From a virus (lineage: Duplodnaviria; Caudoviricetes): a stretch of 50,393 nucleotides of DNA. The DNA lies in IMG/VR virus record IMGVR_UViG_3300023443_001574, positions 1 through 50,393 of that record. One strand, given 5' to 3'. The position numbers and the translations under genes are program-made. Below the pieces are notes generated by a model. The model searched no databases and was not told the origin of the DNA. It worked only from the letters and a program-made list of their open reading frames with translations. Positions 2,591-30,854 of the stretch are shown here, piece after piece (positions within the stretch are counted from its first letter, which is position 1; the number at the start of each line of letters is the position of its first letter).

Positions 2591-3169
2591 CTAAAACCAT
2601 ACCAGGGAGTTCCAGGAACCTCTGCATTTTTGGCAGCACAGGAACCTTCCGGAATAGTGGCCTTTGATCCTACAGAATTTCTATGGGGTTGTATCTATAC
2701 AAGAGACTCATTTGATAACCAGGGACGTTATCTTGGATTGCGTTCCAGATTCCTAACCAAATCAGAGATGAAGATGTCAATTGATGCATGGCGATGGGCA
2801 AAACCCCTGGTGGCCACTAATGTAGATGAACCAAATGCAAAACCAGATGTAAACATAGAACCTCAGAAATATCAGAAAGCATCAATTGCAAATTATGCTC
2901 AACTCAAAAATTTCATCCTGGGATTAGCAAAATTTGTGAACTTTGACAGACGTTCAATTACCCTGGAAGTGGCCAACGGAATTCCTGTTCAGTTTGGAGA
3001 TCCGGTCTTTCTTACTGATGCGGAATCAATTGATGATGCAGATGATTCAATTGCAAATACTTTCAAAGGAGTTGCAGATGGAATCACATTCTCATTGTCT
3101 AAACCAAAGAATGGTCCTGGCGGACTAAAAAAATTCGTTAGAATTGTCAGGAGGTTGTATCCAACATAG
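275..3169 (+). CDS. Large tail-tip/baseplate protein with two tandem CBM5/12-like (chitin-binding type) modules
   Basis: 964 aa, TTG start, located after tail genes. Contains WLTATSYTIHDLVRNNDIAYKALQTHTSS...W, which resembles the ChiA1-type chitin-binding domain, preceded by a similar module. Confidence 0.7.
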   Translation: MGKFAELNDILVILKDHSGDPGADVNGDFDLSTKWIVIEYKDEVPQSVRIVFNADYGRFLTRTPKIKKRDRIFVRITEKDGTITEDVFHVRKIKKKRIQGVGLGLEVMCPHQSENHWKRTISFKKRGKRISGNKAIEISVADLNASKGSKDPTIEIPATFDQVKKLGNRFDENTTNNYFFESVKLESAIAEIKDIESQPIEGGGSFEPMYVRFKSKYNHVPPGVDLDTVVLQAFEQGFKDNSGVFNSTPSTTLVHPTIESGDRPNILSMNSDEDPEQGTNLVAIGDKTSGSFTREWMLYVGAKETFDSAKTYDNTANYKPGHLVKDDDALTYEAKINTTGNKPSSSPTQWVQRTFTKPAQWLTATSYTIHDLVRNNDIAYKALQTHTSSAGDEPGLDDTFWIRVSFAPTVDYSPLTKDKVQYWVNALGGGKHAATNNSKTAMIDPNVIIEDALHPRTFVRYVNTDPSLIPAELKVGGNIPDAFRMLVINPATGVETGAGDFAGNDPAGIAFAGKVAEFVDDDNDGTGFWRVFKGRTTAQDQEVYDWFESDSWVKEPCEGGTSYVDGAGVCVIGSRNANWVKGAYRLTEVLFVGKVGRFFSAGQFECVHSVKWDSGNSRVDMGNEKIIEELDSTTSAVFIKSAPLDTTRTFPFFVGLNFHAMHPFTSNAIPFGAVTIGEKIKHPTMDLNNMDLTHLLKSEWFGPGVEDYYPLQAILAWMKLSINDSVLGFFDQLDGDFKIGISLSDRNDNTMIIEYTHSRNSKVLPLEGLLSKLKPYQGVPGTSAFLAAQEPSGIVAFDPTEFLWGCIYTRDSFDNQGRYLGLRSRFLTKSEMKMSIDAWRWAKPLVATNVDEPNAKPDVNIEPQKYQKASIANYAQLKNFILGLAKFVNFDRRSITLEVANGIPVQFGDPVFLTDAESIDDADDSIANTFKGVADGITFSLSKPKNGPGGLKKFVRIVRRLYPT

Positions 3170-6100
3170 CCACTTCCGCAGGTGTACGACCACTTTCAAG
3201 TGAGTCAGCCAGAATTCAAAGAGCTCTCATCAAGGATGAAGAACAATTCATACAATCACTAAAGATTTTTAATAATACTTCAATTGTTGGCTCTGCTGGA
3301 GCTCAAAGCGCAGGAATATCTAACGCTCCAACAGAGGGTGGAAACTTTCTGAGAAGAGAAGGAGACTTTATGATTGGTCAGTTGGGCCTCCATCCAATAC
3401 TTGTCACAATTGCATCCGGTGTTATAGATGCTAGACTGGTTGCAGATGCTTTCACAAGTAGATTGATTGTGAATGGGGAAGGAGGAGCCAGTGATGACCT
3501 TGATCAGATTCTCAGTGAAAAGCAACCTGGCTCAATTGTGGTAATTCAAGGAATTGTTGGCCAAGTATTAACAATCAAAAATCTTGCAAAAGGTGGAGGA
3601 GATGAAGACATTCGAACCCCTGGTGGAGTAGACTTTTTTGTAGTTGGAGAACAAAATGTCACTGTCATCTATGATGCAGTAAACAATGAATGGGCTTTCA
3701 TGGATGGAGCTCTAGTCGGAGTCGGAGATGTTCCAGATGGAACCGTAGAGAATGATCATCTAGAATGGGATAACATTGGAAAGGCATGGATAGCTCAACA
3801 ATTCTTTGAATTTGGTTCTGGTAATCTTCCAGCAGTTGGAGATTTACGTTTCAAAAATAATACAATTGCTGCTGCATTCAGAAATTTTGCTAATACTGGA
3901 GATATCGAAGTCAAAGTTGATACAAATGACTTTGTTGATATCACTGAAAATAATAACGGTCTTATCACTTTACGACTCAGAGCTCAGCACGCAGTAAATC
4001 CTGATCAATCACTTACACTCACACAACTATCAGGAACCGGAGGAGCAGCTACATTTGCCAGTCCAACTCAGATAAATCTGGATATTGGAGCTACCGGAGT
4101 TATCAGCATCACAGTAACTGGTGTGAGCTTGAATGATCTTGATTTGACTGATGTTACAAATATCATTGGAAGAGATGATGCAACTCCATTCAAGATCATT
4201 TTTGATGCAGCAGAAGATTCTGACACTTTCATCTCAGATGACACTGCAACTGCAGATAGAATCAATGTAACAGCTGGAGGAGTTACTTTCTTTTCCTGGT
4301 TACATGATGGAACCAGACCAATTGCTGGAATCGTATCTGGCGCAAATGGCATCCTGACAATATCTGATGGCCAATTTGCAGGAGATGCCAGAGCTGTTCC
4401 TCCGGATGCGGATATTGATAATGATGCTTTGAATTACTATATTGATACTAGTTCAGATCCTCCAAGAGCAGCCTTTAAGAGAAAAAGTACTGTCGGAGTT
4501 GTCACTACTGGAACCTATCTCTACTCTCCAGTAGATTTTGATATTGAGTTTACAACTTCCAATACTGATATCGGTTCATCTGTAACTCCATATGATGCTT
4601 CATTCCTGAGACGTCTGATGCTCGTATCAGGAGGATCATTGCTGACTGGTTCCCTAATGGCCAGAAACAATGCAGGAGACTTTGAATTCAACGTTCCAGT
4701 AGCAGGCGATTTATATCGATTCTTTTGGGCTGGTGGAAATGATATCCTCTTTACTTTTGGTGGAACAACCAACGAAATTCAAGTTGATACTCTGAATGCA
4801 CAATTACAACTTACACTACAACCAACAGCAATCAATCCAGCTATTGACGGCATCATCCGACACGTCACTGGTGGAGATGTAAAAGTATTTTCAGGTGGGG
4901 TCCTTCGCAATATGTCAGATATTGGCAGTGGCGCACCTCCATTTGATGACAACCAAGTAATTATTCAAGATAATTTAGATAACACGAAAACACTCACGTT
5001 CAATCTATCTTTACAGAATCCACTGGCTGCAAACCTTCTTTCATGGGCTGCTGGCGGTTCTCGTACCCATACATTCTCATCAACATCTGGAACAATAGCT
5101 CAACTAAATCTAGCACAAACATGGACAGCTGAACAAACATTCAATGCAGATATACAGCTTGGTGCAAACATTGACCTTACAGGAAATAGAAACATTGAGA
5201 TTGGTAGCGATGTTTTAGATATTCGTCATTCTGATCTTGATGGTCTTGTAAATACAAGAGTTATGACAGGAAATCAAAGTGTAGGAAGAACATCTTTCAT
5301 GCTTGACTTAGAAACCACTGGAGATGTTCAGACAGGTGGAGGTCCTATAATTAGTTTCAGATATACCGATTCAATCCAAACAAATCAAATCTTAGGAGAA
5401 ATGGGTTTTGTAAGAGGTAGTGGTACAAATGACAGTGACTTTATTCTTAAAGTTACACTAAATGGTGGTAATGTTGAAAGACTAAGAATTGATGAGAATG
5501 GAGTAGCGACATTTACTGGTGATGTTACTTTAGCAGCAGGAAAAAATCTAACTCTCCAAGCGTCAGGTGCAGTCGGTTTTATGGATATTGGTGAAATTAC
5601 AACACCAGGAGATCCATCAGCCAATTTCGGAAGATTATATACAAAAGATGTAGCAACAACTCATTCCGAATTATTTTATCGTGATGAATTAGGAACTGAA
5701 ACAAATCTACTTGCTGGTAGTGGAAGTTCATTCGCAGATGATGTATTCGATATTCACGATGATGTAACGCCAGCTAAGATTTTACAATTTACATTAGCAG
5801 GCCTAACCAGTGGAACAAGTTTGATTAATGTTCTAACAACTTCGGCAGTCAGAACATGGTCACTTCCTGATATAACAGGCACATTTGCTTTGCTACAAGG
5901 AACACAGACATTTTCAGGCGCAAAAACATTCTCTGCAAATCTAACAATGAGTGCAGCCGATATTATAATGGCTGACAACGATGTTTTAGGTCTTAATGAA
6001 CTTGGATTCACTGACAATCATCAAATTCGAGGTTTATCTACTGGAATTGAAATCGAAACATCATCTAACGATTCATTCAAGGTAATCGAGGGAAATTCAA

Positions 6101-10362: not shown

Positions 10363-11025
10363 ATGGAACCAGGAATTCATTGTGAAGCTATAGTCAGCAA
10401 AGCTAATCAAAAAATTGAATTCAAAGAGAACATAGAAGGAATTGACGAATGGCCAATGTCCAAGAACTGGCCAGATGGTGAATTGAGTTATCGATTAAAT
10501 AATTTTTCTGAAGACTTTGCAGAGAAATGGCAGACACGTGCAATCGTTGTTTCATTGAGAGCCTGGAGATGGAGAATTAAAAAAATCTGGTTCAGACGAG
10601 AAAGAAATCCAGACACCAAAGTTGATTTAAATTTTGAATTCAAAGACTTAGCCCACTTTGATAACAAAAAGGGAATATTTGCACACGCTTTTTTCCCTGG
10701 TCAGGGAGCTGCCTCTGGCAATTGCCACTTCAATGATTTTTGGGATTGGGTAGCTGCAAGTAAATGGCAGGATCTAGCACGTGCTCCAATGGTTCCAATT
10801 TCAATTCATGAGATTGGTCACTTGTTAGGTCTTAGACATGACACACTTTCAAGTTCAGTGAACACTGAAATCATGTATCCATCTTTCAATCTTGGAAGAA
10901 AAAAATGGAAACTCGGTCCAAATACTGTTTCAAGAATCCAGGATAGATATGATGCTAGAACAATCAGCCAACGAATTATTGATTATTTTGCTATGAGAAG
11001 ATTCCGGGCCTCTGATTTTCGCTGA
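10363..11025 (+). CDS. Matrixin-family (M10) zinc metalloprotease
   Basis: AHAFFPG, GNCHF, HEIGHLLGLRH (HExxHxxGxxH) and Met-turn IMYP. Confidence 0.9.
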   Translation: MEPGIHCEAIVSKANQKIEFKENIEGIDEWPMSKNWPDGELSYRLNNFSEDFAEKWQTRAIVVSLRAWRWRIKKIWFRRERNPDTKVDLNFEFKDLAHFDNKKGIFAHAFFPGQGAASGNCHFNDFWDWVAASKWQDLARAPMVPISIHEIGHLLGLRHDTLSSSVNTEIMYPSFNLGRKKWKLGPNTVSRIQDRYDARTISQRIIDYFAMRRFRASDFR

Positions 11026-11055
11026 TCGCAAACTCCAAGCCTGGTGTTGAAAAAT

Positions 11056-11187
11056 AGAGGTTCCTCTTGATCGCTAAAGGATAGAAAAAAACTACAAAGA
11101 ATTACTTTGTATTACATCTACAGTAATAGATCTTACGTAAGACACTACTATTACTAGCTACAAGGTTAAGCTTAGTAGTAGTAGTGT
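11056..11187. other. Cluster of abutting inverted repeats; candidate replication origin or control region
   Basis: Inverted repeats at 11056-67, 11093-111, 11110-128 and 11131-142, plus 15-bp arms at 11142-156 / 11173-187. Confidence 0.45.
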
Positions 11188-11205
11188 AGTAGTAAATAGT
11201 GTTTC

Positions 11206-11235
11206 TTCAATCAATATATTATTATAATATTATAG
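11206..11235 (+). promoter_or_regulatory. Putative early promoter of the replication operon
   Basis: TTCAATCAATATATTATTATAATA is identical to the reverse complement of 18960-18983; both begin 44 nt upstream of a start codon. Confidence 0.65.
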
Positions 11236-11249
11236 TTGCATTATCTTTA

Positions 11250-11939
11250 ATGAGTGAAAATGAAGCAACTGAAGTTGTACTTGTTGGCCCACTAGAGGCA
11301 GTATTTGCAAAACCTGAACTAGTTCAAGAAAACATCAAAATTTTCAGAGCAGCTCTTCCAAAGCTTTTAGATCCTAAAGTTGACATGGCAGTAATTCAGG
11401 GAAAGGATTTCATCAAAAAATCAGGATGGAATGTGATCAATGGATACTTTAATGTAAAAACTCAACCAACTCAATCCTGGAGAATTGAACTTCCTGATGG
11501 AGAGTATGCCATCATTGTAGTAGTTGAAGCTGTAAAAGGTGGACGGAGTGTTTCAAGAAGTGCAGAATGTTCAAGCTTGGAAATGAAATCAAAACATCAT
11601 GGAGAAGATTATGCCAGCCTGGAATCAAATTGTTATGGCATGGCAGAAACCAGAGCAGTTGGTAGAGCATCTGCAGCATGGTATATGGTAGGAGATGTTT
11701 CAGCTGAAGAAGTTGAAGATTCTCCTGGACCAATGAAAAAGGAAGGAGAAGAAAAATTTAATCCATCTCCAACAAAAACTGTTCCTTCTACACAACAAGG
11801 GGTTACAATCTGTGTTTGTCCTACTGATAAAGTCACACTAGATGAAGATGGAAAACATTGTACAAGATGCCAGAGAATATTAGATGAAACAAAACGCAAA
11901 CTGATTTGGAAGGAACAAAAATTCCAACCAACATCTTAA
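11250..11939 (+). CDS. Putative ssDNA-annealing protein (Rad52/Sak-like) with C-terminal Zn finger
   Basis: IQGKDFIKKSGW and MAETRAVGRA motifs; CxC...CxxC; directly upstream of radA. ATG 11250 preferred over the ORF-track start at 11199. Confidence 0.55.
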   Translation: MSENEATEVVLVGPLEAVFAKPELVQENIKIFRAALPKLLDPKVDMAVIQGKDFIKKSGWNVINGYFNVKTQPTQSWRIELPDGEYAIIVVVEAVKGGRSVSRSAECSSLEMKSKHHGEDYASLESNCYGMAETRAVGRASAAWYMVGDVSAEEVEDSPGPMKKEGEEKFNPSPTKTVPSTQQGVTICVCPTDKVTLDEDGKHCTRCQRILDETKRKLIWKEQKFQPTS

Positions 11940-11955
11940 TTTTTTTGGTGATTAA

Positions 11956-13113
11956 TTGGCCAAAATAATCAGAAAATCTGAGAAAGTGACAATTCATCAA
12001 AGTGATAAGAAACCTGATAAGAAGATTGATCCACTTTCTCTGGATGATGTTCCAAAGTTAGGACCAATCAAAATCAAGGCACTGGAAGAAGAAGGATACA
12101 CTACGGCTCTACAAGTAGCTTGCAAATCTCCAACGTTTCTAAAAGAAGTCTGTGATATGGACAGAGAAGAAGCAGGAATTGTATTACACTATATCAAAAA
12201 TAAACTCAAAAAAGCAGGTATCCTGGAAAAACAAGAACTTACAGCTCTGGAATTATTGAAACGAAGAAAGCTCGTCAAACGGTTAAAGATTGGTTGTAAT
12301 AATTTTGACAAGCTTCTTGATGGTGGAATTGAATGCGGAGCAATGACACAATTCTATGGAGAGTTTGGTTCAGGGAAGACTCAGATGGTTCATAATCTTG
12401 CAATCCAAGCTCAACTGCCACGAGAACAGGGAGGATTTGCAGAGAAAGACAAACCTCCTCCAATTGTATTGATTATTGATTCAGAAAAAACCACAAGATC
12501 AGAAAGGTTTCTCTCAATCATGGCAGGAAAAGGGATAATCCCAACTAAAATTCCAGCCAAGATTAGAGACAAGCTTCTTGCATACAAAGAACTTGACATA
12601 GAAGAGCAAAAAGAGTATAACATGTTAGTGGCAAAACAGGAAAAGGAAGGTAAGGATTTTCTCAATCATATAGAAATTCAAGAGGTCACTGACACTTACC
12701 AATTATTTCTCAGAGTGCAAAATCTCTTGCAAGTCATGGAACATGTCAACATAAAGCTTGTACTCATCGATTCAATGGTAGCTACTGCCAGAGGAGAATA
12801 CATCGGACGTGGAAATATGAAAGCAAAATCAGAAATACTAAACGAGATGCTACGTAATCTCAAAATAATTTCTGAGAATTATAAGATTCCAATAGTCATC
12901 ATAAATCAAATCTATCACAGACCTGAAGAGGATTATGGAAGAGACCCTGATGTTTTCTATGGTGGAAACATTCTGGCCCACACAGTCACTTATCACATAA
13001 AGCTAAAAAAATCTGGAAAGAAAAGAAAGGCCATAATCACAAAGTCACCTTATCAGGCCAACGATGAGGCAACATTCATTCTTTCAGATGCAGGAATCAG
13101 TGATCCGAATTGA
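11956..13113 (+). CDS. radA: RadA recombinase (archaeal type)
   Basis: N-terminal HhH domain, LLDGGIECG, Walker A GEFGSGKTQ, Walker B LVLIDS, INQ, GGNILAH. Confidence 0.95.
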   Translation: MAKIIRKSEKVTIHQSDKKPDKKIDPLSLDDVPKLGPIKIKALEEEGYTTALQVACKSPTFLKEVCDMDREEAGIVLHYIKNKLKKAGILEKQELTALELLKRRKLVKRLKIGCNNFDKLLDGGIECGAMTQFYGEFGSGKTQMVHNLAIQAQLPREQGGFAEKDKPPPIVLIIDSEKTTRSERFLSIMAGKGIIPTKIPAKIRDKLLAYKELDIEEQKEYNMLVAKQEKEGKDFLNHIEIQEVTDTYQLFLRVQNLLQVMEHVNIKLVLIDSMVATARGEYIGRGNMKAKSEILNEMLRNLKIISENYKIPIVIINQIYHRPEEDYGRDPDVFYGGNILAHTVTYHIKLKKSGKKRKAIITKSPYQANDEATFILSDAGISDPN

Positions 13114-13253
13114 AAAAAGATACTTGCTCTATCTGTGGGGATGAAGGGATAGTAGAATACATCGACATATATTTTTTATTTGGATTTTTTAAAATTAAAA
13201 GAACAAAATGCCTTTGTGAAAAACACTACTTCCAAAAGGAGTTCAATAAATGA
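13110..13253 (+). CDS. Zn-finger microprotein (47 aa)
   Basis: CSIC...CEKH; TTGA and ATGA overlaps at the two ends. Confidence 0.6.
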   Translation: MKKDTCSICGDEGIVEYIDIYFLFGFFKIKRTKCLCEKHYFQKEFNK

Positions 13254-13504
13254 CTCCAAAGGTCTTTACACCAGGAATGAAAGTTGGAGAACTTTGTGAT
13301 TCTGACTTTGATAAATTAGCAAAAGAAATTGCAGAAAGAGCTAAAAATCTAGTCTTCATGACAGCAGATAAAAATTCAAAAGCAATATTAAATGAAATAA
13401 AAAATATGAAACTTGAGGCAAAACGAACTTTTACTTTGAACTTTGAAGTGACTTTATTTCATAATGATATTATTGAAATTTTGGGAGGATTCAGAAGAAA
13501 ATGA
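13250..13504 (+). CDS. Hypothetical protein
   Basis: ORF with coupled overlaps and SD GGAG. Confidence 0.6.
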   Translation: MTPKVFTPGMKVGELCDSDFDKLAKEIAERAKNLVFMTADKNSKAILNEIKNMKLEAKRTFTLNFEVTLFHNDIIEILGGFRRK

Positions 13505-13803
13505 CTCCAATGGAAGAATTCTATTTGAAGATGGGATTCCTGGACTGCTTGCAGATGTCTGCACAAGCTGCGCCAAAACCAGAACAGGCCATCATGAAAC
13601 GAATGTATATCCAGGAGAAAATGATACCTGAAGTTCTACCAAATGTCCCACAAGAAGAGATTCTAAGACGCATCGATGAGATTAATGTCAGGAAAGTGAC
13701 AGAAGAGATGGTCCTAAAATACATCAAACCATATGTAGAAATGGAAAAGATGATAGATATTCTTAAGAAAGCAAAATATACAAACATTGGGGATTTGAAA
13801 TGA
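13501..13803 (+). CDS. Hypothetical protein
   Basis: ATGA overlap and SD GGAGG. Confidence 0.6.
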   Translation: MTPMEEFYLKMGFLDCLQMSAQAAPKPEQAIMKRMYIQEKMIPEVLPNVPQEEILRRIDEINVRKVTEEMVLKYIKPYVEMEKMIDILKKAKYTNIGDLK

Positions 13804-13928
13804 ATTTATCTTCTCAAGATAAAAGTAAACGAATAACGAAATGCTGTCCTGATTGTGGGTGTACTAACATTAATCATTATTCATGGTGTAGGATTCACGA
13901 AACCTCTGTTGAAAGGTGGCATCATTGA
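13800..13928 (+). CDS. Cys/His microprotein (42 aa)
   Basis: CCPDCGC..H...C..H; ATGA overlap. Confidence 0.5.
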   Translation: MNLSSQDKSKRITKCCPDCGCTNINHYSWCRIHETSVERWHH

Positions 13929-14104
13929 CAAAAGACCAACAAAGTTGGTTTATAATTAATCACTATCCAAAATTAGATGATATTACAGAGTTTGAATCCA
14001 AGTCTGAGGCACAAAAATTCTATATGGAAAATTGTCAAGATGGGAAAAATTGTTGGGGTATAATAATTCAAAGACCAAAAGGCTTCTTTACAATAGGTGA
14101 ATGA
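13925..14104 (+). CDS. Hypothetical protein
   Basis: TTGA overlap, in frame with ORF-track 13916. Confidence 0.5.
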   Translation: MTKDQQSWFIINHYPKLDDITEFESKSEAQKFYMENCQDGKNCWGIIIQRPKGFFTIGE

Positions 14105-14155
14105 TGTAATGTCAATTTTTGTGAAAAGCCAACTTGGCTTACATGATTAAGGAAA

Positions 14156-15172
14156 ATGTCTTTAACTAAGCAAATCCTCAGTTTAAGTATGGTTGAAGAA
14201 ATTCAATTAGAAGCTGGAACATTCACTATAGCTGATCTTGATGGAATAATAAAAGTAACATTCACTATACCTGATCCTATAATAATAAAAAAGCAAGTAG
14301 AGGACCTAGAAAAGTCCTTAGTCGTAAAAGGACTTGCAACCAATCCAGATAATGACACAATCAACTATAAAGTTGTTGTAACAGGAAGTATAAGAAAAGG
14401 TTCGGCTGCAAATCCTGCTGATGTAATATCGGATGATGGTAGGACATTATACGGTAAAATAAATCCACAAGTAGGTATTGATAATTACTTTGTTATTGGT
14501 GACATAGTTTCAGTAGAAGCACCTGTTGATTTATCAGTAACCTTAGACGGTGTTTCAATACCTGTGACTATTCCACCCCCACCCACACCAACAGAAAAAC
14601 ATTTAATCATAAAAGGAGATCCAGCAAACGATAATAGAACTATAGCATATAGTGTTACAATAGCAGGAGGGGTAACAAGAATAGGACCAGAAGCTAGTCC
14701 TGTTTCAGATTTGATAGTTGGAACTAATATCACAGCTAGGATATATTCTGGAATAACTCCAGGAATAGGTATAAGTACAGATGATTACTTTTTTACAGGT
14801 ACACTTGAATCAATTAACTCATCTGTAAATCTTGTAGCTACAGTTGACGGTATTCCATTTCCTGTAACAATAGTTGAACCATCTCCTCCAGCAGGAAAAC
14901 ATTTAGAGATAAGAGGAGATCCAGCTAATCTAATAAATAAGATAATATCATATACAGTTACAATTTCAGGCGGAGTTACAACACTAGGATTAAGAAGCTT
15001 TGATCCTGTAACTGACTTTATAATTGGAACTAATATAGAAGGAAAAACAAAAGCCAAGACTGGTTTTGATGACTATTTCTTTACAGGAGAGATTGTATCA
15101 GTTAATTCACCAGTAAATCTTCTTGTTACAGTTGATTATGTTCCATTTCCTGTGATTACTCCAACATCATGA
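14156..15172 (+). CDS. Protein with three ~95-aa beta-rich repeats and Pro/Thr linkers
   Basis: Three copies of KxLxxKG...YxVxxxG...D(D/N)YFxxGxxxS...VTxDxxxxPV. Confidence 0.75.
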   Translation: MSLTKQILSLSMVEEIQLEAGTFTIADLDGIIKVTFTIPDPIIIKKQVEDLEKSLVVKGLATNPDNDTINYKVVVTGSIRKGSAANPADVISDDGRTLYGKINPQVGIDNYFVIGDIVSVEAPVDLSVTLDGVSIPVTIPPPPTPTEKHLIIKGDPANDNRTIAYSVTIAGGVTRIGPEASPVSDLIVGTNITARIYSGITPGIGISTDDYFFTGTLESINSSVNLVATVDGIPFPVTIVEPSPPAGKHLEIRGDPANLINKIISYTVTISGGVTTLGLRSFDPVTDFIIGTNIEGKTKAKTGFDDYFFTGEIVSVNSPVNLLVTVDYVPFPVITPTS

Positions 15173-15327
15173 TGAGATTATCTAAGCAAAGACAACGAGC
15201 AGTTTGTCCTAAATGTGGAAAACCTAATAGTAAATTATATGAATTTAATGCTAAAGATTTCAGATTGTTAAAGTGCTCAGAATGTCATGAAGTATCACCA
15301 TATCAGAGGTATTTTGTTGTCAATTAA
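15169..15327 (+). CDS. Zn-ribbon microprotein (52 aa)
   Basis: CPKC...CSEC. Confidence 0.6.
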   Translation: MMRLSKQRQRAVCPKCGKPNSKLYEFNAKDFRLLKCSECHEVSPYQRYFVVN

Positions 15328-15339
15328 CTCAAAAAGAAA

Positions 15340-15453
15340 ATGAGCGGAAATAGCATCTCCAAATATGTCTGCCATGTCTGCAATTTCGTTACTAACTCAA
15401 AGAAAGTTTATGATGACCATTTTAAATTCAAGCTTCATCAGGATGCAGTGTGA
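15340..15453 (+). CDS. C2H2 Zn-finger microprotein (37 aa)
   Basis: YVCHVCNF...HFKFKLH; GTGA overlap with the next gene. Confidence 0.6.
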   Translation: MSGNSISKYVCHVCNFVTNSKKVYDDHFKFKLHQDAV

Positions 15454-15965
15454 AAGTAAACCGAACCAGAAGCATAGCTAAAAAACAAATGAGAGAAAAC
15501 GGTAGAACAAAGAACCGTCCAGAAGAGAAACTTGCTGTCAATCTTATTGAAGTGGGATTGCCTGCTTACGCTCATGTCATACCACAGAAAAAATTAACAC
15601 TAAACGATCCTGATGGTCCAGACATTGAATTCAATGTAGACATCGCTGTAAGATTGGGACATCTTAAAACAGTCATAGAACTTCATGGTCCATATCACGA
15701 TGAAAAAAAGTATGTGAGAAGAGACAGAATTAGAAGACTGCTCCTGGAACACAATGGATGGAACACACTTGTAATCCATCATTCAAAAGCGCCTATTCTA
15801 TTCAAGGAATCCAAGAAATGGAAACTTGAAGAATTATCCAAAGTGTATGGTGAAATCATAGATCAGATTGGTGAAAAGTTACCACTCAGCAAAGAGATAC
15901 CAGATGGAACCTTTGAATTTGTATTACGTAAGACACAGCTAAACGAATCTGATCAAGTTAGTTAA
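15450..15965 (+). CDS. DUF559/Vsr-like PD-(D/E)xK endonuclease
   Basis: VDI...VIELHGPYH...RDR...LEHNGW pattern. Confidence 0.75.
   Translation: MKVNRTRSIAKKQMRENGRTKNRPEEKLAVNLIEVGLPAYAHVIPQKKLTLNDPDGPDIEFNVDIAVRLGHLKTVIELHGPYHDEKKYVRRDRIRRLLLEHNGWNTLVIHHSKAPILFKESKKWKLEELSKVYGEIIDQIGEKLPLSKEIPDGTFEFVLRKTQLNESDQVS
15920..15935. promoter_or_regulatory. Palindromic operator-like site (consensus TGTCTTACGTAAGACA)
   Basis: 15/16 match here; 14/16 copies at 11129-11144 and 25504-25519. Confidence 0.55.
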
Positions 15966-16021
15966 ATTATAAATTCTAAAAGAGATAATAACAAATTTTT
16001 TAAATCCTTTATGGGAAAAGC

Positions 16022-16378
16022 ATGAAACGCGATTATGACAGACTGTATTTAGGAAGCATTACTGTTAGGATGCCAGAATCAATGCTTAAGAAACTTGATG
16101 AAAAATGTGGAGCTGGTCTAAAATATCGAGATAGATCAGAGGCAATCCGTTCTTTAGTTTCTCTTGGAATGCAAGTTGAAAGCTTGTTAGAAATTCAGAG
16201 TGATCCTAAAAAGAAGAAAGAGTTTGAAGAGAAGATCACGTTTCTATTCCAGGAGAATAATCTAGAAAAAACCATGGAGACAATGACAGAGAAAGAGCTC
16301 AGTACAATAATCTTCATCGCAACGAATCTCCAGGATAAGAAGATTCAGCAACTCGTGTTTGACGTTAAGAAGAGCTGA
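16022..16378 (+). CDS. CopG/NikR-type ribbon-helix-helix regulator
   Basis: ITVRMPESMLKKLDE...YRDRSEAIR; overlaps the MCM start. Confidence 0.8.
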   Translation: MKRDYDRLYLGSITVRMPESMLKKLDEKCGAGLKYRDRSEAIRSLVSLGMQVESLLEIQSDPKKKKEFEEKITFLFQENNLEKTMETMTEKELSTIIFIATNLQDKKIQQLVFDVKKS

Positions 16379-18389
16379 TTGTTTGAGCAAAGTAGAAGCC
16401 AACGAATACACTGAATCAGCTAAACGTGATGTTATCTACAATTTTTTGAAAGACAACAAAGAACTTCGTGACATACTTTACAAATTTACAGCTAGACCAA
16501 GCGGAACGTTCCTTTTCAATCCAATGGGTCAGGACCTAATTTTTGAATGGTTCCTGGAAGATGCTGAACAAATCATCACGCAAACTAAGATAGCCTGTAT
16601 CCAACTCATCTGTGGATGGGGAGGAGAGAGATTACGTGATTCCCTGGTGAAAAATTTCACAGTACAAATTTCTGATTCAAACGAAATTAAGATGCAGGAT
16701 TGGAATGCAGAGTATGAAGGAATTCCAGTATCTGTGAACGTCCAAGTAATTGGAGCATTCAATGAAGAGACATATACCAAATCAGCATATTGTGCTTGTC
16801 CTGAATGTCATCATGGCAAAGAAGTTTTTGACTTGAGCATTGTTCCACGTTGTACTACTGATAGCTGCACACTCAAAGGAACCCTAATGATGGTCAGAAG
16901 AGAGACTTTGAAAACTGGACCAATCAAAACAATAATGATTCAGGAACCACTAGAAGAAGCAAAACACTCTGCTCCAAAAATTTTTCCATGTATTATCAAA
17001 GATGATGATGTAGTTGCAACATTCATTGGCCAACGAAAAAAGATAATTGCAATCTTCAGATCCGAACCACAAAAAGGAAAACCAACTAACCGCATCATGA
17101 TCCACGCAATCTCGGTCCATAGCCTAGGGGAAATGGATGAGATTCAACCAACAGATGAAGAGATGGAAAAATTTATGGCCATGTCCAAACAGGATAACTA
17201 TGTTTCAAAGATAGTTGATTCGTATGCTCCTGAAGTAAGATATGGTGGAACAGAACTTGCAAAGCTTTGTCTGATTCTTTCAATCCTTGGAGGAAACAAA
17301 GCAGGCAGACTCAGAGGATACATTCACGCTTTTCTGGTAGGAGATCCTAGCACAGCAAAATCAAAGATGCTAGAATTCATGCCACTAGTTGTTCAAAAGT
17401 CTGGCTTTGCAGTAGGTGGGACCGCATCAGGTTCTGGTATCACTGTAGCAATGGACACACTGCCAAACAGAATGAAGATGCCACGAGCTGGTCTGATTCC
17501 AAACTGTACTGGAGGATGCGCAGCAATAGATGAACTGAACCAGCTTGAAGATGAGGATCTGGGAAAGGTCTTCGAAGCTATGGAATCTGGCACAATTCAC
17601 TACAATAAAGGTGGATTCGATGTTCTACTAGTTGCGGAAACCGCAATCCAGGCTGGAGCCAATCCACGTGGATATTACTACAACAAATCCAAATCCATTG
17701 TGGACAATATCCATATGCCAGGACCATTGATTGCAAGATTTGATTTGAAAATTCTTCTCCAGGATAGCGACAACACAGTAGAAGAGAGAAACATACTGAA
17801 TCACATTTCCTTGATCAGAGAGATTGGAGTGGAGAAATATGTTGACACAAATGCATTGCTACAGCCACGTGAACTCATGGTGCTGTTCAACCTCGCAAGA
17901 TCATTCACTCCAAAGATGTCCAAAGAAGCAGAGAAATTGATCACAGATTTTCACATGATGATGAAATCACTTCCACAGGATGAAGGCTCATTCAGAATTG
18001 ACAAGAGATTCTTTGAAGCTATTGGAAGGATATGTATTGCATATGCGAAACTTCACTTCCAGAAGACTGTCACAAAAGAGATGGCCATGACAGTAATTGA
18101 GATTTACAAAAAAACTTTGAAGACATTTGGAATGAATGTAGAATCAGGAGAGATGCAACTCTCATTGGAGGAATCAGGAAAAACAAAGGAGACTGCATTT
18201 GTATTTGTTTTCAAAGACAAGCAGGAATCGCTGAATGAAACTTTTCTTCAGGCCGAGGTAGTTCTCAAAGGAATGTGCAAACACTATCCAAGATTCTGGA
18301 GAAACATGGATGAAGCTGCATTGTACTTTGACAAAATGGCCAAAGGTGAAAAGCTAGTTGCAAGAGCAGGAAGGTTCAATCTTTCTTGA
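16359..18389 (+). CDS. mcm: MCM replicative helicase
   Basis: Zn finger CPEC..C....C, Walker A GDPSTAKS, Walker B IDE, EAME, GANP, ARFD. Confidence 0.95.
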   Translation: MTLRRADCLSKVEANEYTESAKRDVIYNFLKDNKELRDILYKFTARPSGTFLFNPMGQDLIFEWFLEDAEQIITQTKIACIQLICGWGGERLRDSLVKNFTVQISDSNEIKMQDWNAEYEGIPVSVNVQVIGAFNEETYTKSAYCACPECHHGKEVFDLSIVPRCTTDSCTLKGTLMMVRRETLKTGPIKTIMIQEPLEEAKHSAPKIFPCIIKDDDVVATFIGQRKKIIAIFRSEPQKGKPTNRIMIHAISVHSLGEMDEIQPTDEEMEKFMAMSKQDNYVSKIVDSYAPEVRYGGTELAKLCLILSILGGNKAGRLRGYIHAFLVGDPSTAKSKMLEFMPLVVQKSGFAVGGTASGSGITVAMDTLPNRMKMPRAGLIPNCTGGCAAIDELNQLEDEDLGKVFEAMESGTIHYNKGGFDVLLVAETAIQAGANPRGYYYNKSKSIVDNIHMPGPLIARFDLKILLQDSDNTVEERNILNHISLIREIGVEKYVDTNALLQPRELMVLFNLARSFTPKMSKEAEKLITDFHMMMKSLPQDEGSFRIDKRFFEAIGRICIAYAKLHFQKTVTKEMAMTVIEIYKKTLKTFGMNVESGEMQLSLEESGKTKETAFVFVFKDKQESLNETFLQAEVVLKGMCKHYPRFWRNMDEAALYFDKMAKGEKLVARAGRFNLS

Positions 18390-18796
18390 CAAAATGGTTA
18401 GTTGCTAATACTGTTAGCGTCAAAGGTGGAAAGATAGAACATCAGATATCTGAAAAACCATTATTGCATGCTTGCTGTGCAGAAGATCACTTTGGAGATA
18501 CAAATATCGACATAAGGCCAGAAGTCAATCCTGATGTTGTCTGTGATGTACTAGAAGAATTACCATTTAAGAATGACCAATTTGCTGCAGCATTTGCTGA
18601 CATTCCTTGGATTGGTGCATGGCGTTGGAACGCTGCAAAAACTATCAAACACTTGCTTAGAGTGGCTCCAATAGTTTACATTATTTCTCCTTGGTTGTAT
18701 GGAGCTAAAACTTGTTATCCTGAAACGATTAATGTGTCCTGGAGACCTGGAATCAATCATCCAATTCTATTTGTTAAATATGTAAGAAGAAACTAA
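18386..18796 (+). CDS. Small SAM-dependent methyltransferase (amino-MTase-like)
   Basis: LHACC, DIRPEVNPDVVCD, LPF, and DIPW in place of a DPPY-type motif. Confidence 0.6.
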   Translation: MTKWLVANTVSVKGGKIEHQISEKPLLHACCAEDHFGDTNIDIRPEVNPDVVCDVLEELPFKNDQFAAAFADIPWIGAWRWNAAKTIKHLLRVAPIVYIISPWLYGAKTCYPETINVSWRPGINHPILFVKYVRRN

Positions 18797-18939
18797 TCTT
18801 CAAAAATAATTGTGATGTTGAGATCCTTTCCAAGAAGGCCTTTGTCCTTCAGTTCCTGGTGAAATTTTTTCGGAATATTGACATGAAGAGCTGGTCCTTG
18901 AGTGTTAATTTTAGATATCTGTTCTATAGTATGTTTCAC
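18793..18939 (-). CDS. AbrB/SpoVT-like transcription regulator (48 aa); the only convincing minus-strand gene
   Basis: SKINTQGPALHVNIPKKF..ELKDKGLLGKDLNITI swapped-hairpin pattern; GTG start at 18939. Confidence 0.65.
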   Translation of the reverse strand: MKHTIEQISKINTQGPALHVNIPKKFHQELKDKGLLGKDLNITIIFED

Positions 18940-18996
18940 AACTATTTTGACGGATATATTATTATAATAATATATTGATTGAAAAAGTTGTGAAAC
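18933..18996. promoter_or_regulatory. 64-bp imperfect palindrome; bidirectional promoter
   Basis: Perfect 22-bp core ATATATTATTATAATAATATAT (18954-75) and perfect 11-bp outer arms GTTTCACAACT/AGTTGTGAAAC that contain both GTG starts. Confidence 0.75.
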
Positions 18997-20714
18997 CGAG
19001 CAAGATTCGTTTAGGCTATGAAATTGATACTGGAAAAGAGATCCAGATATCACCATCACATCTCATCGTTACCGGATTAAGCCAGAAAGCAGGCAAAACC
19101 ACAACGTTAGAGTCTCTAATCAAACGGAGTGGTTCAAAGGCAATTGTGTTTAGAACTAAAATTGGTGAAAAAAGTTTCCTGGATGGAACTGTCATTCCTC
19201 CATATTTCAAAGAAAAAAGTGACTGGCAATACATCGAGAGTTTGATTGAGGCTACAATGAAAGAGAAAGTTGGCAAGCTAGATAGAGCTGTCATAATCAA
19301 ACTCTCAAAAATGACGAGCGGAAAATCATTATTAGAATTTAAAAAAGTGGTAGACAACAGACTGCTAGAAAAAATAAACACATTCGAAAGCATGTTGCTA
19401 ACTAATCTGCAAGCATATCTTGAGATTGTGTTGCCAAAATTGCAGACAATACAATTTTCAAACACTCTTGAACTTGTCAATGGTCTCAACATAGTTGACC
19501 TGGAAAGATTCAGCAGAGACGCAGAAGTGCAGAGTCTAATCATCAGCAGTGTTCTTGAAGAAGTACTACATAATCACAAAGGCGTCATTGTGGTAATTCC
19601 AGAAGCTTGGAAATTCATTCCACAGAAAAGAGGAAATCCATGCAAAATGGTTGTAGAGGAATTCATCAGACAAGGAGCCACTAACGGAAATTATCTCTGG
19701 ATAGATTCTCAGGATATGTCAGGCGTTGACAAAACTCCTTTGAAGCAAATCTCAGAATGGATACTTGGATATCAATCTGAAATGAATGAAGTGAAACATA
19801 CCTTAGACCAAATACCACTACCAAAACAAAGTAAACCAAAAGAAGATGAAATCATGACACTAGGAACTGGCATCATGATATTTGCCAGCAGGGATTTGAC
19901 TGCCAAAGTCTACGTCCAACCTTTCTGGTTGAATGATGAAAAATCAATACAGATAGCAAAAGGTGAATTAAAAATAACAGAAATCGATGCTCCAGAACGA
20001 ATAGTTCAGAGTAAAATTGCAATTCAAACCACTCATGATGATGGAGTTGGCAATGAAGAAGTAAAAGGACTGAAACAGCTTATCAGCAAAGAGTTGATAG
20101 ATATGAGAACCGACTTTTTCAATAAAATAGGAGACATACAAGATCAAATAAACAAAGTCTTTGTAGATATTACAGGAATCAAAACCTCTACACCAGTCAT
20201 TGATGAAGATTCTATAGCATCCAAAGTATTACAAAAAATTCCACAACAAAATCATTCATCAAATCCTGTTGACAAGCAAACATTAATTGCTGAGATTATG
20301 GCCAAGATTCCAGCGTCTCCAGGGGCCATGACTTATGAAATAGCTCCACTTGAAAAAATCAAGAAAGACTTTTTGGAAGAAGCAAAGCAGAAAATTCTTG
20401 CTGATGTTGGAGAATTATCCGATGATGCAAAAAAGACGCTAAAATATTTGGAAGTAAAAAGTAAATTGGTAAAAACAAATGAATTGGTTGAAAAATGCTT
20501 TTTGATGAAAGCTGGAGGAAGTGCTTCCAAGAAAGTAAATAATGCCAGTTTACAACTTCGTGGCTTTGAACTTGCTAGAAAAGGAACTCACAGTGATCAA
20601 GAAGGATGCCTGAAATCTAGGATACAATCTTTGTTGGGAAATCATGAGGCAACAGAACAAGAAATAGAAAATCTGTATCAGCATATTCTCATGGAAATGT
20701 TAGGAGGTGATTAA
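18990..20714 (+). CDS. HerA/FtsK/VirB4-like P-loop ATPase with C-terminal coiled-coil and possible winged helix
   Basis: HLIVTGLSQKAGKTT and VIVVIPEAWKF; GTG 18990 preferred (alternative TTG at 18975). Confidence 0.7.
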   Translation: MKPSKIRLGYEIDTGKEIQISPSHLIVTGLSQKAGKTTTLESLIKRSGSKAIVFRTKIGEKSFLDGTVIPPYFKEKSDWQYIESLIEATMKEKVGKLDRAVIIKLSKMTSGKSLLEFKKVVDNRLLEKINTFESMLLTNLQAYLEIVLPKLQTIQFSNTLELVNGLNIVDLERFSRDAEVQSLIISSVLEEVLHNHKGVIVVIPEAWKFIPQKRGNPCKMVVEEFIRQGATNGNYLWIDSQDMSGVDKTPLKQISEWILGYQSEMNEVKHTLDQIPLPKQSKPKEDEIMTLGTGIMIFASRDLTAKVYVQPFWLNDEKSIQIAKGELKITEIDAPERIVQSKIAIQTTHDDGVGNEEVKGLKQLISKELIDMRTDFFNKIGDIQDQINKVFVDITGIKTSTPVIDEDSIASKVLQKIPQQNHSSNPVDKQTLIAEIMAKIPASPGAMTYEIAPLEKIKKDFLEEAKQKILADVGELSDDAKKTLKYLEVKSKLVKTNELVEKCFLMKAGGSASKKVNNASLQLRGFELARKGTHSDQEGCLKSRIQSLLGNHEATEQEIENLYQHILMEMLGGD

Positions 20715-20804
20715 TTGAAAGTAGAATTTCATATCCAGAACAAAAAGGACTGTGATTACGCAATCAACACATTAAAGAAAATACAGGAATCTTATCCAGA
20801 GTGA
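20715..20804 (+). CDS. Microprotein (29 aa)
   Basis: TTG start with strong SD GGAGGTGA. Confidence 0.4.
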   Translation: MKVEFHIQNKKDCDYAINTLKKIQESYPE

Positions 20805-20840
20805 TCAAATTTTCTTTACCTAGCAGATCATATACATCAG

Positions 20841-20856
20841 AGGGGGTATACCCCCT
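20841..20856. promoter_or_regulatory. Perfect palindrome AGGGGGTATACCCCCT abutting ATG
   Basis: Read directly from the sequence. Confidence 0.5.
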
Positions 20857-21039
20857 ATGGAATACAAAGCTAATATCATGCTGGCCAATGTTGGACAAGA
20901 TGACGCCAAGGTCACACTATCTTTTTTTGTGACTGATGCAGGAAGTACAGAAGATGCAGAAGAAATCTATGAAGAACTCGCCAAAGTCATCAAAAAGCGT
21001 GGTGGCACTCAAAAAGAATCAAAAGAAAAAGAAGAGTAA
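20857..21039 (+). CDS. Hypothetical protein
   Basis: 60-aa ORF. Confidence 0.55.
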   Translation: MEYKANIMLANVGQDDAKVTLSFFVTDAGSTEDAEEIYEELAKVIKKRGGTQKESKEKEE

Positions 21040-27603: not shown

Positions 27604-29430
27604 ATGGGAGTCACTAAAAAAGTCATAGTTAGACCCCATCACCAGGCTCAGGAAGATAGAAAAAGAAAAGCTGATGCAATTGTAAAGAAGCAGTTAGACT
27701 TTCATTCTGATAAAGAAATTGTTGAAGAGCTTCCCTTACTTCCAATTGATAGAATGCAATGGGAATTGCATTGCAGACCATTCATCAAGGGAAAAAGAAA
27801 CAGGCTTCCATTCTTGCCAATGATAAGAGAAGCTATCCTGGACCCTCATCCATTCAAGCAGTATCTGTGGGGAAGACAATGGGGAAAGACAACTGGATTA
27901 GCTTCAGAGCTTGCACATGCAGCAAGTACTATCAACGATTACGATCAGACTTATGTTAATTTCAAATTAGATAACTTGAGAACATTCTCTGAAAACAAAT
28001 TCCGTCAAGATGTATTTGGCCAAGAACCATTAGCGACTTACGTATCAGGAATCTCAAAGCTTGGTGCAATGAATAGAATAGTAATGAAGACACGTTCCAT
28101 CATAGACATTTTACTTCCTGGTGAGGAATGGTCCAATCTCCTAGGAAAGTCCAATGAAAGAATTGTAGTTGATGAAGGCCAGGATATTGATTGGACTGGA
28201 TTCTTCAATGCAAGAGAAACACAAGCTGACACCATGGGAGATTTGATTATTGCAGGAGTTGGAGGATATACCGACACAGAATATCATAGATCTTGGCTTA
28301 GCACAAATCAGATGGAATGGGAATTCAAACACGGTGAACCGTACAAAGGATATGAGAACATGTCCTGGAGACGAGAAATGGAAGAACGATGCTTTGACAG
28401 TCACGGCCTTGTGTATGATGAAGAACTAGAACGAGTACTTGATGGCAAGTGGGTTCCACGAGCTCCAAAACATTATTCACGCCACGGATATTATTTGCCT
28501 CAAACATACAATCCAAGAATTCCATTAACCATCAAAGATGCAGAACAGCTCTACCATGTATCACCGGAATGGTCCATTGAGTGGAAACAAAAGAACCCTG
28601 ATATCTCCACTATAGATTTCAGAAGAAACGTGATGGCCGAGTTTGTAGAAGGTGAACTCAAACCAATTACCACAAAGATGATGCTCGATTTATTTGACAA
28701 AACCGTTGGACTGACAAGAGCAGAAGATGTAGATCACTATGCTGGCAAAATCTACATTGGAATTGATTGGGGGGGAGGAGGAAAGACCATCATCTGGATT
28801 TGGCAATGCCTTGATGACAATGCTCCAATCTTCAAGCTGCTATGGGTTGAAAGAGTTGAGACAGATGATATCAAGGAGCAAATCAGAATCTGTGAAGAAC
28901 TCATTGATGCATACGAAGGATACCAGATTGTGATTGATGCAGGAGGAGGATCAGCTCAAGTGCAATCTTTACAAAGTCGTTATGCAAGACGCTGTATCAG
29001 AAACTCATATCATGTAAGGCCAGAACGTCCACTGCCAACAGTCCTGGAGAAGCCAAGACTCAACAGGGAAATGCGATATGTGATTGACAGAACTTTTTCA
29101 ATTGATAGAATCATTGATTTGATAAGGCATCCATATCAACACGGAGATTTCATATCTAGCAGAATAATTCTTCCAGGAAAAGACTATGATGATGTCAAAT
29201 GGATAGTCCGTCAGTTTGTTGCACTTGAAGGAGAAAAACACATGCTAAAATCAACTGGCCAGACATACATCAAATACATTCACAAGGATACTGAGCCAGA
29301 TGATGCACTACAAGCTTGCAACTATTCTTTCATAGCCTGGGACATCAACCATGGAGGACGCAAAGTAGAATTCATGCAGCTTCAACCAAAAGATCCATTT
29401 GGTGATGGATACACAACTAGTCCACTTTAA
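27604..29430 (+). CDS. terL: Terminase large subunit
   Basis: Walker A GRQWGKT, Walker B VVDE, RNase H-fold GIDWG, VID, DDALQA. Confidence 0.92.
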   Translation: MGVTKKVIVRPHHQAQEDRKRKADAIVKKQLDFHSDKEIVEELPLLPIDRMQWELHCRPFIKGKRNRLPFLPMIREAILDPHPFKQYLWGRQWGKTTGLASELAHAASTINDYDQTYVNFKLDNLRTFSENKFRQDVFGQEPLATYVSGISKLGAMNRIVMKTRSIIDILLPGEEWSNLLGKSNERIVVDEGQDIDWTGFFNARETQADTMGDLIIAGVGGYTDTEYHRSWLSTNQMEWEFKHGEPYKGYENMSWRREMEERCFDSHGLVYDEELERVLDGKWVPRAPKHYSRHGYYLPQTYNPRIPLTIKDAEQLYHVSPEWSIEWKQKNPDISTIDFRRNVMAEFVEGELKPITTKMMLDLFDKTVGLTRAEDVDHYAGKIYIGIDWGGGGKTIIWIWQCLDDNAPIFKLLWVERVETDDIKEQIRICEELIDAYEGYQIVIDAGGGSAQVQSLQSRYARRCIRNSYHVRPERPLPTVLEKPRLNREMRYVIDRTFSIDRIIDLIRHPYQHGDFISSRIILPGKDYDDVKWIVRQFVALEGEKHMLKSTGQTYIKYIHKDTEPDDALQACNYSFIAWDINHGGRKVEFMQLQPKDPFGDGYTTSPL

Positions 29431-29643: not shown

Positions 29644-29771
29644 GATGTCAAAAAAATTCATGCTGTATATTATCAAATAATCATAAAGGCCAACATGTAG
29701 GAAAAGGAACCAGGAACGAAGATTGTGATTGCCAGCATAATGCATCCAAGAGAATGAAGCAGTACGACTAA
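29640..29771 (+). CDS. Cys/His microprotein (43 aa)
   Basis: C....CC...H...H...CDC.H; ATGA overlap. Confidence 0.4.
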   Translation: MRCQKNSCCILSNNHKGQHVGKGTRNEDCDCQHNASKRMKQYD

Positions 29772-29807
29772 TTCCTTTAATTTAGAATTTTCATGAAATA
29801 GTTATCA

Positions 29808-30230: not shown

Positions 30231-30239
30231 GTGATTGTT

Positions 30240-30854
30240 ATGGGTAAAACCAGAATAGATACTCCTGGAAGTGGAGGAGCTACAGGTCCAGCAGGAGCTG
30301 ACGGAGCTGATGGAGCACAAGGTCCAACAGGAACTACAGGTTCACAAGGAGATCAAGGTATTCAAGGTACACCAGGTACTATAGGAGCTACAGGTCTAGT
30401 AGGTCCACAAGGTCCAGCAGGAGATGATTCAACAGTTCCAGGTCCTCAAGGACTACAAGGTCCAGCAGGTGCGGGTGATATTTCTGATGTTCTTTATGAT
30501 TCTACTTACAGAAACGGTGGAAATCTGACCATTGTAAGTGCAGGAACCAACACATTCGGGGCATGGGTTGAATATTCGGCAGATATTGGCACAGGTAAAA
30601 AATTAATTGGCCTTGTTTACATATCCGTCCTCGGCGTGTTGGGTACATCTGTAGAAATTGAAATAGGTGAGGGTGCAGTTTCATCTGAAGTTGCAATATC
30701 TAGAATTAATAGTGTGGGTCTAGTAGAGGAAACTCGAACACATTTTCCATTAAATAGAACTATAACAGATAGTTCAAGGGTATCTCTGAGAGTAAGAGAT
30801 AATATTGGACAAGCAAAAAGTTATCATGTAGTAATATTGGTAGCACCTGCATAA
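30240..30854 (+). CDS. Collagen-like (Gly-X-Y) fibre protein with globular C-terminus
   Basis: [18 protein letters not shown]... about 20 triplets; SD AGGTGA before ATG 30240. Confidence 0.85.

Follow-up and report, generated by a model that had tools for sequence, protein, structure and literature searches.

We analyzed the IMG/VR virus record IMGVR_UViG_3300023443_001574 (Duplodnaviria; Caudoviricetes) and focused on a predicted dyad-symmetric divergent promoter region of 64 bp (18933–18996). This region lies between a gene for a 48-aa protein on the minus strand and a gene for a 574-aa P-loop protein on the plus strand. One palindromic TATA element probably serves both genes, which would be transcribed as leaderless units, and its core is reused elsewhere in the genome. 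The analyzed stretch, referred to below as the window, is the entire record of 50,393 nt, which is rated as 100% complete and 'linear'.

A proposed symmetric promoter region between two GTG starts

The dyad is centered at 18964/18965, and 26/32 of its positions pair (81%). Its middle is a perfect A/T palindrome of 22 bp, ATATATTATTATAATAATATAT (18954–18975), which we propose as the shared TATA box. The palindrome is flanked by a left 11-bp arm, GTTTCACAACT (18933–18943), and a right 11-bp arm, AGTTGTGAAAC (18986–18996). The arms are perfect reverse complements, 53 bp apart, and the inner 10-nt spacers between the palindrome and the arms pair poorly. The left arm consists of the start codon of the 48-aa gene, the next four coding bases, and 4 nt upstream; the right arm consists of AGTT followed by GTG AAA C of the 574-aa gene. 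The GTG codons at 18939 (minus strand) and 18990 (plus strand) are 51 nt apart, and the gap between the genes is 50 nt. The initial annotation had described the palindrome, the arms, and the divergent GTG AAA starts, each at about 25 nt from the center. Direct reading confirmed this observation in every detail, the center of the palindrome being 25.5 nt from both starts.

Chance occurrence was assessed using 300 first-order Markov simulations of the window. A dyad of 32 pairs with at least 26 pairing was found in 0/300 simulated windows (maximum 23). A perfect palindrome of at least 22 bp was found in 7/300, so that little weight can be given to the palindrome by itself. The window contains another perfect A/T palindrome of 24 bp, ATAAAAATATAATTATATTTTTAT, at 37192–37215, in the gap after 36750–37163 and overlapping the TTG of the open reading frame (ORF) at 37215–37559. 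It may be a further symmetric TATA element, or a junction of terminator and promoter within the structural module.

The symmetry might instead mark structural DNA, that is, an origin or unwinding element beside the operon of the MCM helicase, a cruciform, or a hairpin-telomere resolution site, the last of which had also been suggested in the initial annotation. An 80-mer, taken as single-stranded DNA, was predicted to form a strong hairpin (− 13.8 kcal/mol, z = − 6.07). The A/T palindrome is located 165 nt past the end of the MCM operon, and inverted copies of its core flank a 7.7-kb recombination/replication module. However, no iterons or repeats resembling origin recognition boxes were found around the site; beyond the dyad, the only repeats in 18780–19010 were a direct pair of 10 nt and three inverted pairs (9–13 nt). 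A replication origin was rejected, as there were no initiator repeats in 18780–19010, no Orc1/Cdc6 among the 65 ORFs, and no skew change. A telomere resolution site was rejected as well, since the site lies well inside a record rated as complete (18.9 kb of 50.4 kb), no protelomerase or recombinase family was detected among the 65 ORFs (Pfam, E up to 0.01), and no strand-changing joint was found in the contigs of relatives from four sequencing runs. The spacing to both starts is also exactly that of a promoter, and we consider structural DNA a very improbable explanation.

By its gene content (MCM, RadA, and large terminase), the record is an archaeal tailed virus. Archaeal viruses accounted for all MCM matches in the phage collection (17/17 records), and the Atlas neighbors of the 48-aa protein were also archaeal. 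We therefore read the region by archaeal transcription rules. Divergent sigma-70 promoters of the bacterial type can be written into the region as TTGACG-18-TATATT (plus strand) and TTCACA-16-TATTAT (both strands), and six promoter-like sites were found in 1 kb, compared to 3.2 ± 1.8 in shuffles. This excess of hexamers is within two standard deviations, and such promoters are scarcely credible in a virus that encodes MCM and a Rad51-type RadA and whose MCM matches and Atlas neighbors are archaeal. The large terminase matched only distant phages of the Bacillus group in the phage collection, at 21–24% identity, and is thus uninformative on the host. A host among the marine Nitrososphaeria, based on the habitat labels of related runs and the Atlas lead, is only a guess. 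In a GeneMarkS-2 survey, 11/11 Thaumarchaeota genomes were placed in the leaderless class (PMC6028130).

A scan for Shine–Dalgarno (SD) motifs detected none before 18939 or 18990, and many operon-internal genes were preceded by GGAG(G). At the SD-less heads at 7063, 11250, 15450, 16022, 23612, and 29808, the longest A/T run was centered at − 23 to − 28, which is the geometry of leaderless archaeal promoters. With this spacing, two separate TATA boxes would not fit into the 50-nt gap, and a single palindrome would be needed for both directions. A single A/T element is indeed situated midway between the divergent starts, with the initiation points taken from the start codons.

We propose that the symmetric A/T core would accept TBP in both orientations, and that the direction would depend on which of the two flanks is contacted by TFB. 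RNA polymerase would then initiate at each GTG or beside it, approximately 25 nt from the core, to give two leaderless mRNAs. TBP/TFB binding, two-way firing, and co-regulation with a second copy of the core (described below) are each predicted from the sequence. No RNA run was listed for 11000–20900. The claim in the initial annotation that one shared TATA element fires either way is thus supported in its geometry, context, and precedent, and its two-way firing is a prediction. The mutually exclusive switch that it also proposed is speculation.

The precedent comes mainly from Thermococcales. In P. furiosus, antisense start sites were found approximately 50 bp upstream of the primary ones, around a BRE-TATA-BRE arrangement (BRE, B recognition element), and one promoter gave two products 49 bp apart in vitro (PMC6640164). 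In T. kodakarensis, divergent start sites are mostly 52 bp apart and share a TATA box (bioRxiv 10.1101/2020.01.31.928960). As in our region, a near-symmetric TATA box lies midway in these systems (the PF1918 promoter of P. furiosus and promoters of T. kodakarensis), the distance of approximately 50 bp compares with 51 bp between our start codons, and direction is presumably set by the flanks. In contrast, the second transcripts in these organisms are mostly non-coding antisense RNAs from genes arranged head-to-tail, and their start sites have been measured. The viral region has two predicted leaderless protein-coding mRNAs and a dyad that extends into both coding regions, and it is known from its sequence alone.

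Start codons and the second copy of the core

The 48-aa gene (18793–18939, minus strand) is convergent with the MCM operon. Its homologues (n = 9, 77–90% identity) all started with MK or MR at the same position (9/9). A profile search of 1.84 billion representatives found 13 proteins at E up to 0.001, and the family is thus narrow. No relatives were found in viral contigs or genome contigs, and one was found in metagenome contigs. The initial annotation called this the only antisense gene. It is the only minus-strand ORF with support, but other short minus-strand ORFs exist in gaps; these had no match in a PHROG comparison, the only one applied to them.

The 574-aa gene (18990–20714, plus strand) has a predicted leaderless GTG start and likely encodes an ATPase of the AAA_10/VirB4-HerA type. 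More than 1000 homologues were found. Of the 120 listed, 11 carried PF12846 (AAA_10), and all shared the P-loop-like motif GLSQKAGKTT. The ATPase label given in the initial annotation is based on this motif and on the PF12846 matches. The homologue P0029, which is 90% identical, begins with MKSVKIRLGYEI, and its length equals that of the window protein read from 18990. In two related contigs of the sequencing run X1, 18990 G>A changes the plus-strand GTG to ATG; in two X1 contigs, insertion of T behind 18938 changes the minus-strand start to ATG. Since the N-termini of homologues agree and relatives carry these GTG-to-ATG variants, both start codons are well supported.

The core occurs a second time in the window. 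A 24-mer on the minus strand (18960–18983, copy B), which comprises the flank TTCAATCA and the TATA sequence facing the 48-aa gene, recurs exactly on the plus strand at 11206–11229 (copy A). Both copies start 44 nt before a start codon, ATG 11250 for copy A and GTG 18939 for copy B, exactly as stated in the initial annotation, and identity extends to 30/32 (94%) over 11203–11234. These were the only two exact occurrences in the window, and the expectation from 100 shuffles was 0.00, even allowing three mismatches. An exact 23-mer of the shared core had no match in viral contigs.

The transcription unit behind copy A (11250–13113, plus strand) consists of a gene for a 229-aa protein (11250–11939) followed by the gene for the Rad51-type RadA recombinase (11956–13113; PF08423, 1e-44), which is preceded by a GGTGA SD motif. 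The 229-aa protein matched no family in Pfam, PHROGs, or NCBIfam, its Atlas neighbors were viral 'hypothetical' proteins only, and no relatives were found in viral contigs or in the three records containing 574-aa relatives. RadA had no relatives in genome contigs. The operon that encodes a ribbon-helix-helix (RHH) protein and MCM begins at 16022 and has its own upstream region, which is unrelated to the 24-mer. Reuse of the core for the replication operon, as claimed in the initial annotation, therefore holds for the 229-aa/RadA pair but not for the MCM operon.

As the flank-plus-TATA core is duplicated before both units, expression of the 48-aa gene and of the RadA operon is probably alike in strength and timing. 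Copy A shares only TTCAATCA, the flank on the 48-aa side; the flank on the 574-aa side is TTTGACGG. If these flanks are BREs, the ATPase gene could differ in strength and timing from the 48-aa gene and the RadA operon. A similar arrangement is known from the halovirus HF2, an archaeal tailed virus in which promoter-bearing intergenic repeats are reused and their activity was measured by reporter (PMC8707807). In both viruses, a short sequence is placed before several units, here as two 24-mers at the fixed distance of 44 nt with a predicted promoter role, and HF2 also has a conserved bidirectional promoter region. HF2 differs in having repeat classes of 29–58 bp in many copies with reporter-measured activity, whereas the window has two inverted copies, predicted as promoters, in a virus of another host lineage.

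Two further ideas on the repeated core were dropped. GTTTC motifs were considered positionally equivalent at three sites, but the one at 11201 is shifted by 8 nt. The inverted 32-nt copies were considered as mediators of an inversion of the 7.7-kb module; this is supported by no joint, and such an inversion would leave the pairing of promoters and genes unchanged.

Other repeats were observed near predicted heads. Just upstream of copy A, 11142–11187 contains a 15-nt inverted repeat (93%, 16-nt loop) with repeats of the TAGT/ACTA type, and a similar TAGT-rich inverted repeat stands beside the core in a relative, at a loose contig end in X1. The repeat at 11142–11187 is a possible regulator site. 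The exact 12-mer ACTAATTCCTTT is located at 29767–29778 and 37555–37566, 41 and 36 nt before the heads at 29808 and 37591, and is followed by a T-rich TATA-like run at both sites. These sites may form a second class of reused promoter; the statistics are weak, with 11/100 shuffles giving at least two matches at one mismatch.

Conservation and direction of the proposed promoter

Contigs of relatives were taken from four marine or sediment DNA runs belonging to four studies (X1, X2, X6, and X9) and compared over 18650–19250. Two contigs, record 18 of X6 (18792–19146) and record 5 of X1 (18874–19177), extend from the 48-aa gene across the gap into the beginning of the 574-aa gene, and thus close relatives keep the layout. 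Among the 40 substitutions listed, there were none in 18935–18986, compared to nine in 18893–18933 and four in 18987–19027. Indels were absent from 18946–18986 among those listed and were present at 18937, 18938, and 18945.

Depth peaked over 18944–18985, at 119–131 in X1 versus approximately 40 to the left and at 37–47 in X9 versus approximately 10, and loose ends of contigs clustered at 18940, 18978, and 18986. In these communities, the core is therefore also surrounded by other sequences. One loose end in X1 led from the core into TAGT-rich inverted repeats resembling the region upstream of copy A. Several related contigs matched only up to or only from the core (18940; 18976–18986) and then continued in unlike sequence, which suggests that the core is a junction for module exchange between related viruses. 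Two joints that skip part of the region (18837 to 19002 and 18862 to 18940) were each seen in single low-depth contigs of X2.

The arms, by comparison with the layout, vary in relatives. The left arm showed 18933 G>A (His-to-Tyr, codon 3) and 18934 T>C (synonymous, Lys codon 2), and the right arm showed 18987 G>C and 18990 G>A; from these variants, the arms are not a strictly conserved operator. RTG AAA recurs at heads that lack the 24-mer, as GTGAAAG at 15450, ATGAAAC at 16022, and GTGAAAC at 37591. Some of the identity between the arms thus seems to follow from a preference of this virus at its leaderless heads in general. The rest (AGTT, GTG in both arms, and the final C) suggests inverted duplication or homogenization within the palindrome. 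Both changes to ATG occur together, at mirror positions, in record 5 of X1, and this paired change fits inverted duplication, homogenization, or selection on symmetry alike.

More distant relatives differ in layout. The contig L007 (8141 bases), whose 48-aa homologue is 55% identical, keeps the order of RHH, MCM, and small gene. At 3969–3986, it carries a different perfect A/T-rich palindrome of 18 bp, ATGTTAATATATTAACAT, which is centered 23.5 nt before the ATG of the small gene and is not repeated within its 8141 bases. The contig L004, whose 574-aa homologue is 75% identical, has GGAGGG before the ATG and a co-directional upstream gene, and it does not have this promoter. Because partners and layout differ in L007 and L004, the conserved unit is, on this comparison, the small gene with a palindromic TATA element at about − 24, and the perfect two-sided symmetry is lineage-specific. 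The initial annotation had tied its reading to conservation of the symmetry in relatives. Close relatives keep the layout and the core, but the arms drift, and the partners differ in distant relatives.

Several observations weigh against a shared TATA element that fires in both directions. The flanks TTCAATCA and TTTGACGG differ, and no clear BRE motif was found at other heads; one direction may therefore be weak or silent. Several internal genes also lack an SD motif in our crude scan, and the 574-aa gene could be expressed by read-through from the plus-strand operon that precedes it. A rightward promoter is thus not strictly required. Generally, GTG is a poorer start than ATG on haloarchaeal leaderless mRNAs. 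The A/T core is unspecific, as its 18-mer occurs in at least 119 viral contig stretches, including giant-virus bins; these matches are unrelated, since the best flank identity to the 64-mer was 40/64. Conservation of the core is documented among the listed differences, and 132 further differences exist. Several related contigs diverge at 18940 or 18976–18978. The partner in L007 is a gene for a 60-aa protein with a GGAGG leader, 66.5 nt from the center of the palindrome, and L004 lacks the small gene and belongs to a record (G001) that shares only 7/65 proteins with the window.

Some of these observations would also be accounted for by a one-direction promoter. The palindrome would drive the 48-aa gene and copy A would drive RadA, the 574-aa gene would be expressed by read-through or weak internal initiation, and the mirror arm would be a by-product of inverted duplication or gene conversion within the palindrome. 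Consistent with this, copy A shares solely the flank on the 48-aa side, the 574-aa gene is inside an SD-led operon in L004 and other relatives, and the palindrome of L007 is close to the small gene (23.5 nt) and far from its partner (66.5 nt). However, read-through would have to cross the convergent 48-aa gene head-on, and no SD motif precedes 18990. It is also difficult to account for the exact spacing of 25.5 nt and the AGTTGTGAAAC context common to both sides unless they have a function, and both starts changed to ATG together in record 5 of X1. We regard a one-direction promoter as quite unlikely.

The 48-aa protein and implications for the virus

The initial annotation called the 48-aa protein AbrB-like. 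At the sequence level, this label was not supported: AbrB/MazE Pfam models (for example, PF04014) matched 0/16 family members at E up to 10 and did not match the protein alone, and PDB sequence searches gave nothing relevant. An AlphaFold2 model from a 16-sequence alignment had a predicted local distance difference test (pLDDT) score of 89.9 and contained a beta-hairpin (residues 11–20, with strands 11–14 and 17–20), a helix (24–32), and an extended C-terminal part. Foldseek returned 15 matches, all at E of at least 1.4, and MazE, VapB, or dimeric RIFT-fold chains accounted for 8 of the 14 listed. These included MazE 1ub4_C (E 2.7), 2mrn, VapB 3zvk_H, 6nkl_D, 5l6l_E, and the RIFT chains 8jvr and 8jvq. 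We take MazE, VapB, and RIFT-fold chains to be one superfamily of the cradle-loop/AbrB type. The best VIA-align match was 8jvq (Z 3.1, root-mean-square deviation 2.6, 42 residues aligned), and the best Z in a wide search was 2.5. An earlier and poorer model (pLDDT 74.9) gave one Foldseek match, MazE 1mvf_D (E 5.6), and a best Z of 2.7 in the wide VIA search; a VIA search of the PDB with that model found nothing. The Atlas cluster at rank 21 contained MazE_antitoxin in 17% of its members. What is left of the AbrB label is thus a set of weak fold hints (E of at least 1.4, Z of at most 3.1), and the chances that the protein is a half-barrel DNA-binding dimer are about even.

If it is, the region may primarily be an operator. 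A half-barrel dimer of the AbrB/MazE type would bind the dyad, either through the two arms (53 bp apart) or through the shared 24-mer, and this would be the main reason for the symmetry; the protein would control its own gene together with the ATPase gene and the RadA operon, and such an operator can coexist with the promoter. The AlphaFold2 model (hairpin, helix, and tail), the MazE, VapB, and RIFT chains among its Foldseek matches, the VIA-align match to 8jvq, and the MazE_antitoxin cluster point in this direction, as do the exact 24-mer at a second promoter and a core that, among the differences listed, is better conserved than the coding flanks. The gene arrangement is also that of C68 of the Sulfolobus plasmid-virus pSSVx, an AbrB-like protein encoded by the only reverse-oriented gene, which binds the region between its own promoter and the divergent promoter (PMC5569661). 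Both proteins are tiny, and both are encoded by a sole reverse gene, small and conserved, with an intergenic region before a divergent neighbor. C68, however, is a proven swapped-hairpin dimer with mapped sites, whereas the 48-aa protein is not detectably related to it in sequence, and the fold and DNA binding of the 48-aa protein are predictions; the parallel is suggestive only. Against a primary operator, the Pfam and PDB sequence searches described above were negative and the fold matches are weak. The arms drift in close relatives, RTG AAA is found at 15450, 16022, and 37591 without the 24-mer, and L007 carries a palindrome of another sequence, which is unrepeated in its 8 kb. We therefore consider a primary operator unlikely.

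A combined view would be a three-way switch. The 48-aa half-barrel dimer, on the TATA core and on the copy at 11206, would bias the direction in which TFB and RNA polymerase are assembled at a single TBP site, and would thereby toggle between its own gene, the ATPase module, and the RadA operon; the core would also be a crossover point for modules. This view is distinctly improbable on the present data.

The surrounding genome is arranged mostly in one direction, with nearly all long ORFs on the plus strand. The operon upstream of the promoter region (16022–18796, plus strand) encodes the RHH protein (16022–16378; PF01402), the MCM helicase (16359–18389; PF00493, 3.3e-43, with MCM_OB and MCM_lid domains), and a 136-aa ORF, and it meets the 48-aa gene tail-to-tail. 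A blastn search of 16359–20714 against the phage collection gave no matches. The large terminase is encoded at 27604–29430 on the plus strand (phrog_675, 4e-28), and Pfam and PHROGs also identified tail-fibre-like proteins in the window. No Rfam family was found in the whole window at the gathering threshold.

Other features of the window were noted. The ends of the record (1–2590 and 47804–50393) are direct repeats with 90.1% identity over 2590 nt, and a tail-fibre-like gene with a CBM_5_12 domain occurs at each end (275–3169; 48078 to the end). The two copies could be paralogues. Alternatively, the genome could be circularly permuted and two strain variants could have been joined in its assembly, in which case the true genome would be approximately 47.8 kb. 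The region 42151–44397 is a 748-aa ORF made of many diverged repeat units of 60 nt (20 aa), with a weak N-terminal PH0730-like match, and the long minus-strand ORFs within it are probably artefacts of the repeats. A matrixin-type zinc metallopeptidase is encoded at 10363–11025 (PF00413, 1.3e-22), and a collagen-triple-helix repeat protein at 30231–30854 (PF01391).

Since divergent transcription from one TATA box has already been documented in Thermococcales and Haloferax, the shared TATA element proposed here is a tidy instance and not a new mechanism, and it would not surprise a specialist. No such promoter in marine archaeal tailed viruses was found in the literature searched, in a search that was not exhaustive and did not cover supplements. 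Hardly any studies have addressed transcription signals in uncultivated marine archaeal tailed viruses, and a 64-bp site with two protein-coding outputs is a compact template for the choice of direction on a symmetric TATA element. The site could show whether a tiny virus-encoded protein biases this choice. It also marks a boundary at which neighboring modules differ among relatives, and thus bears on the shuffling of archaeal virus genomes.

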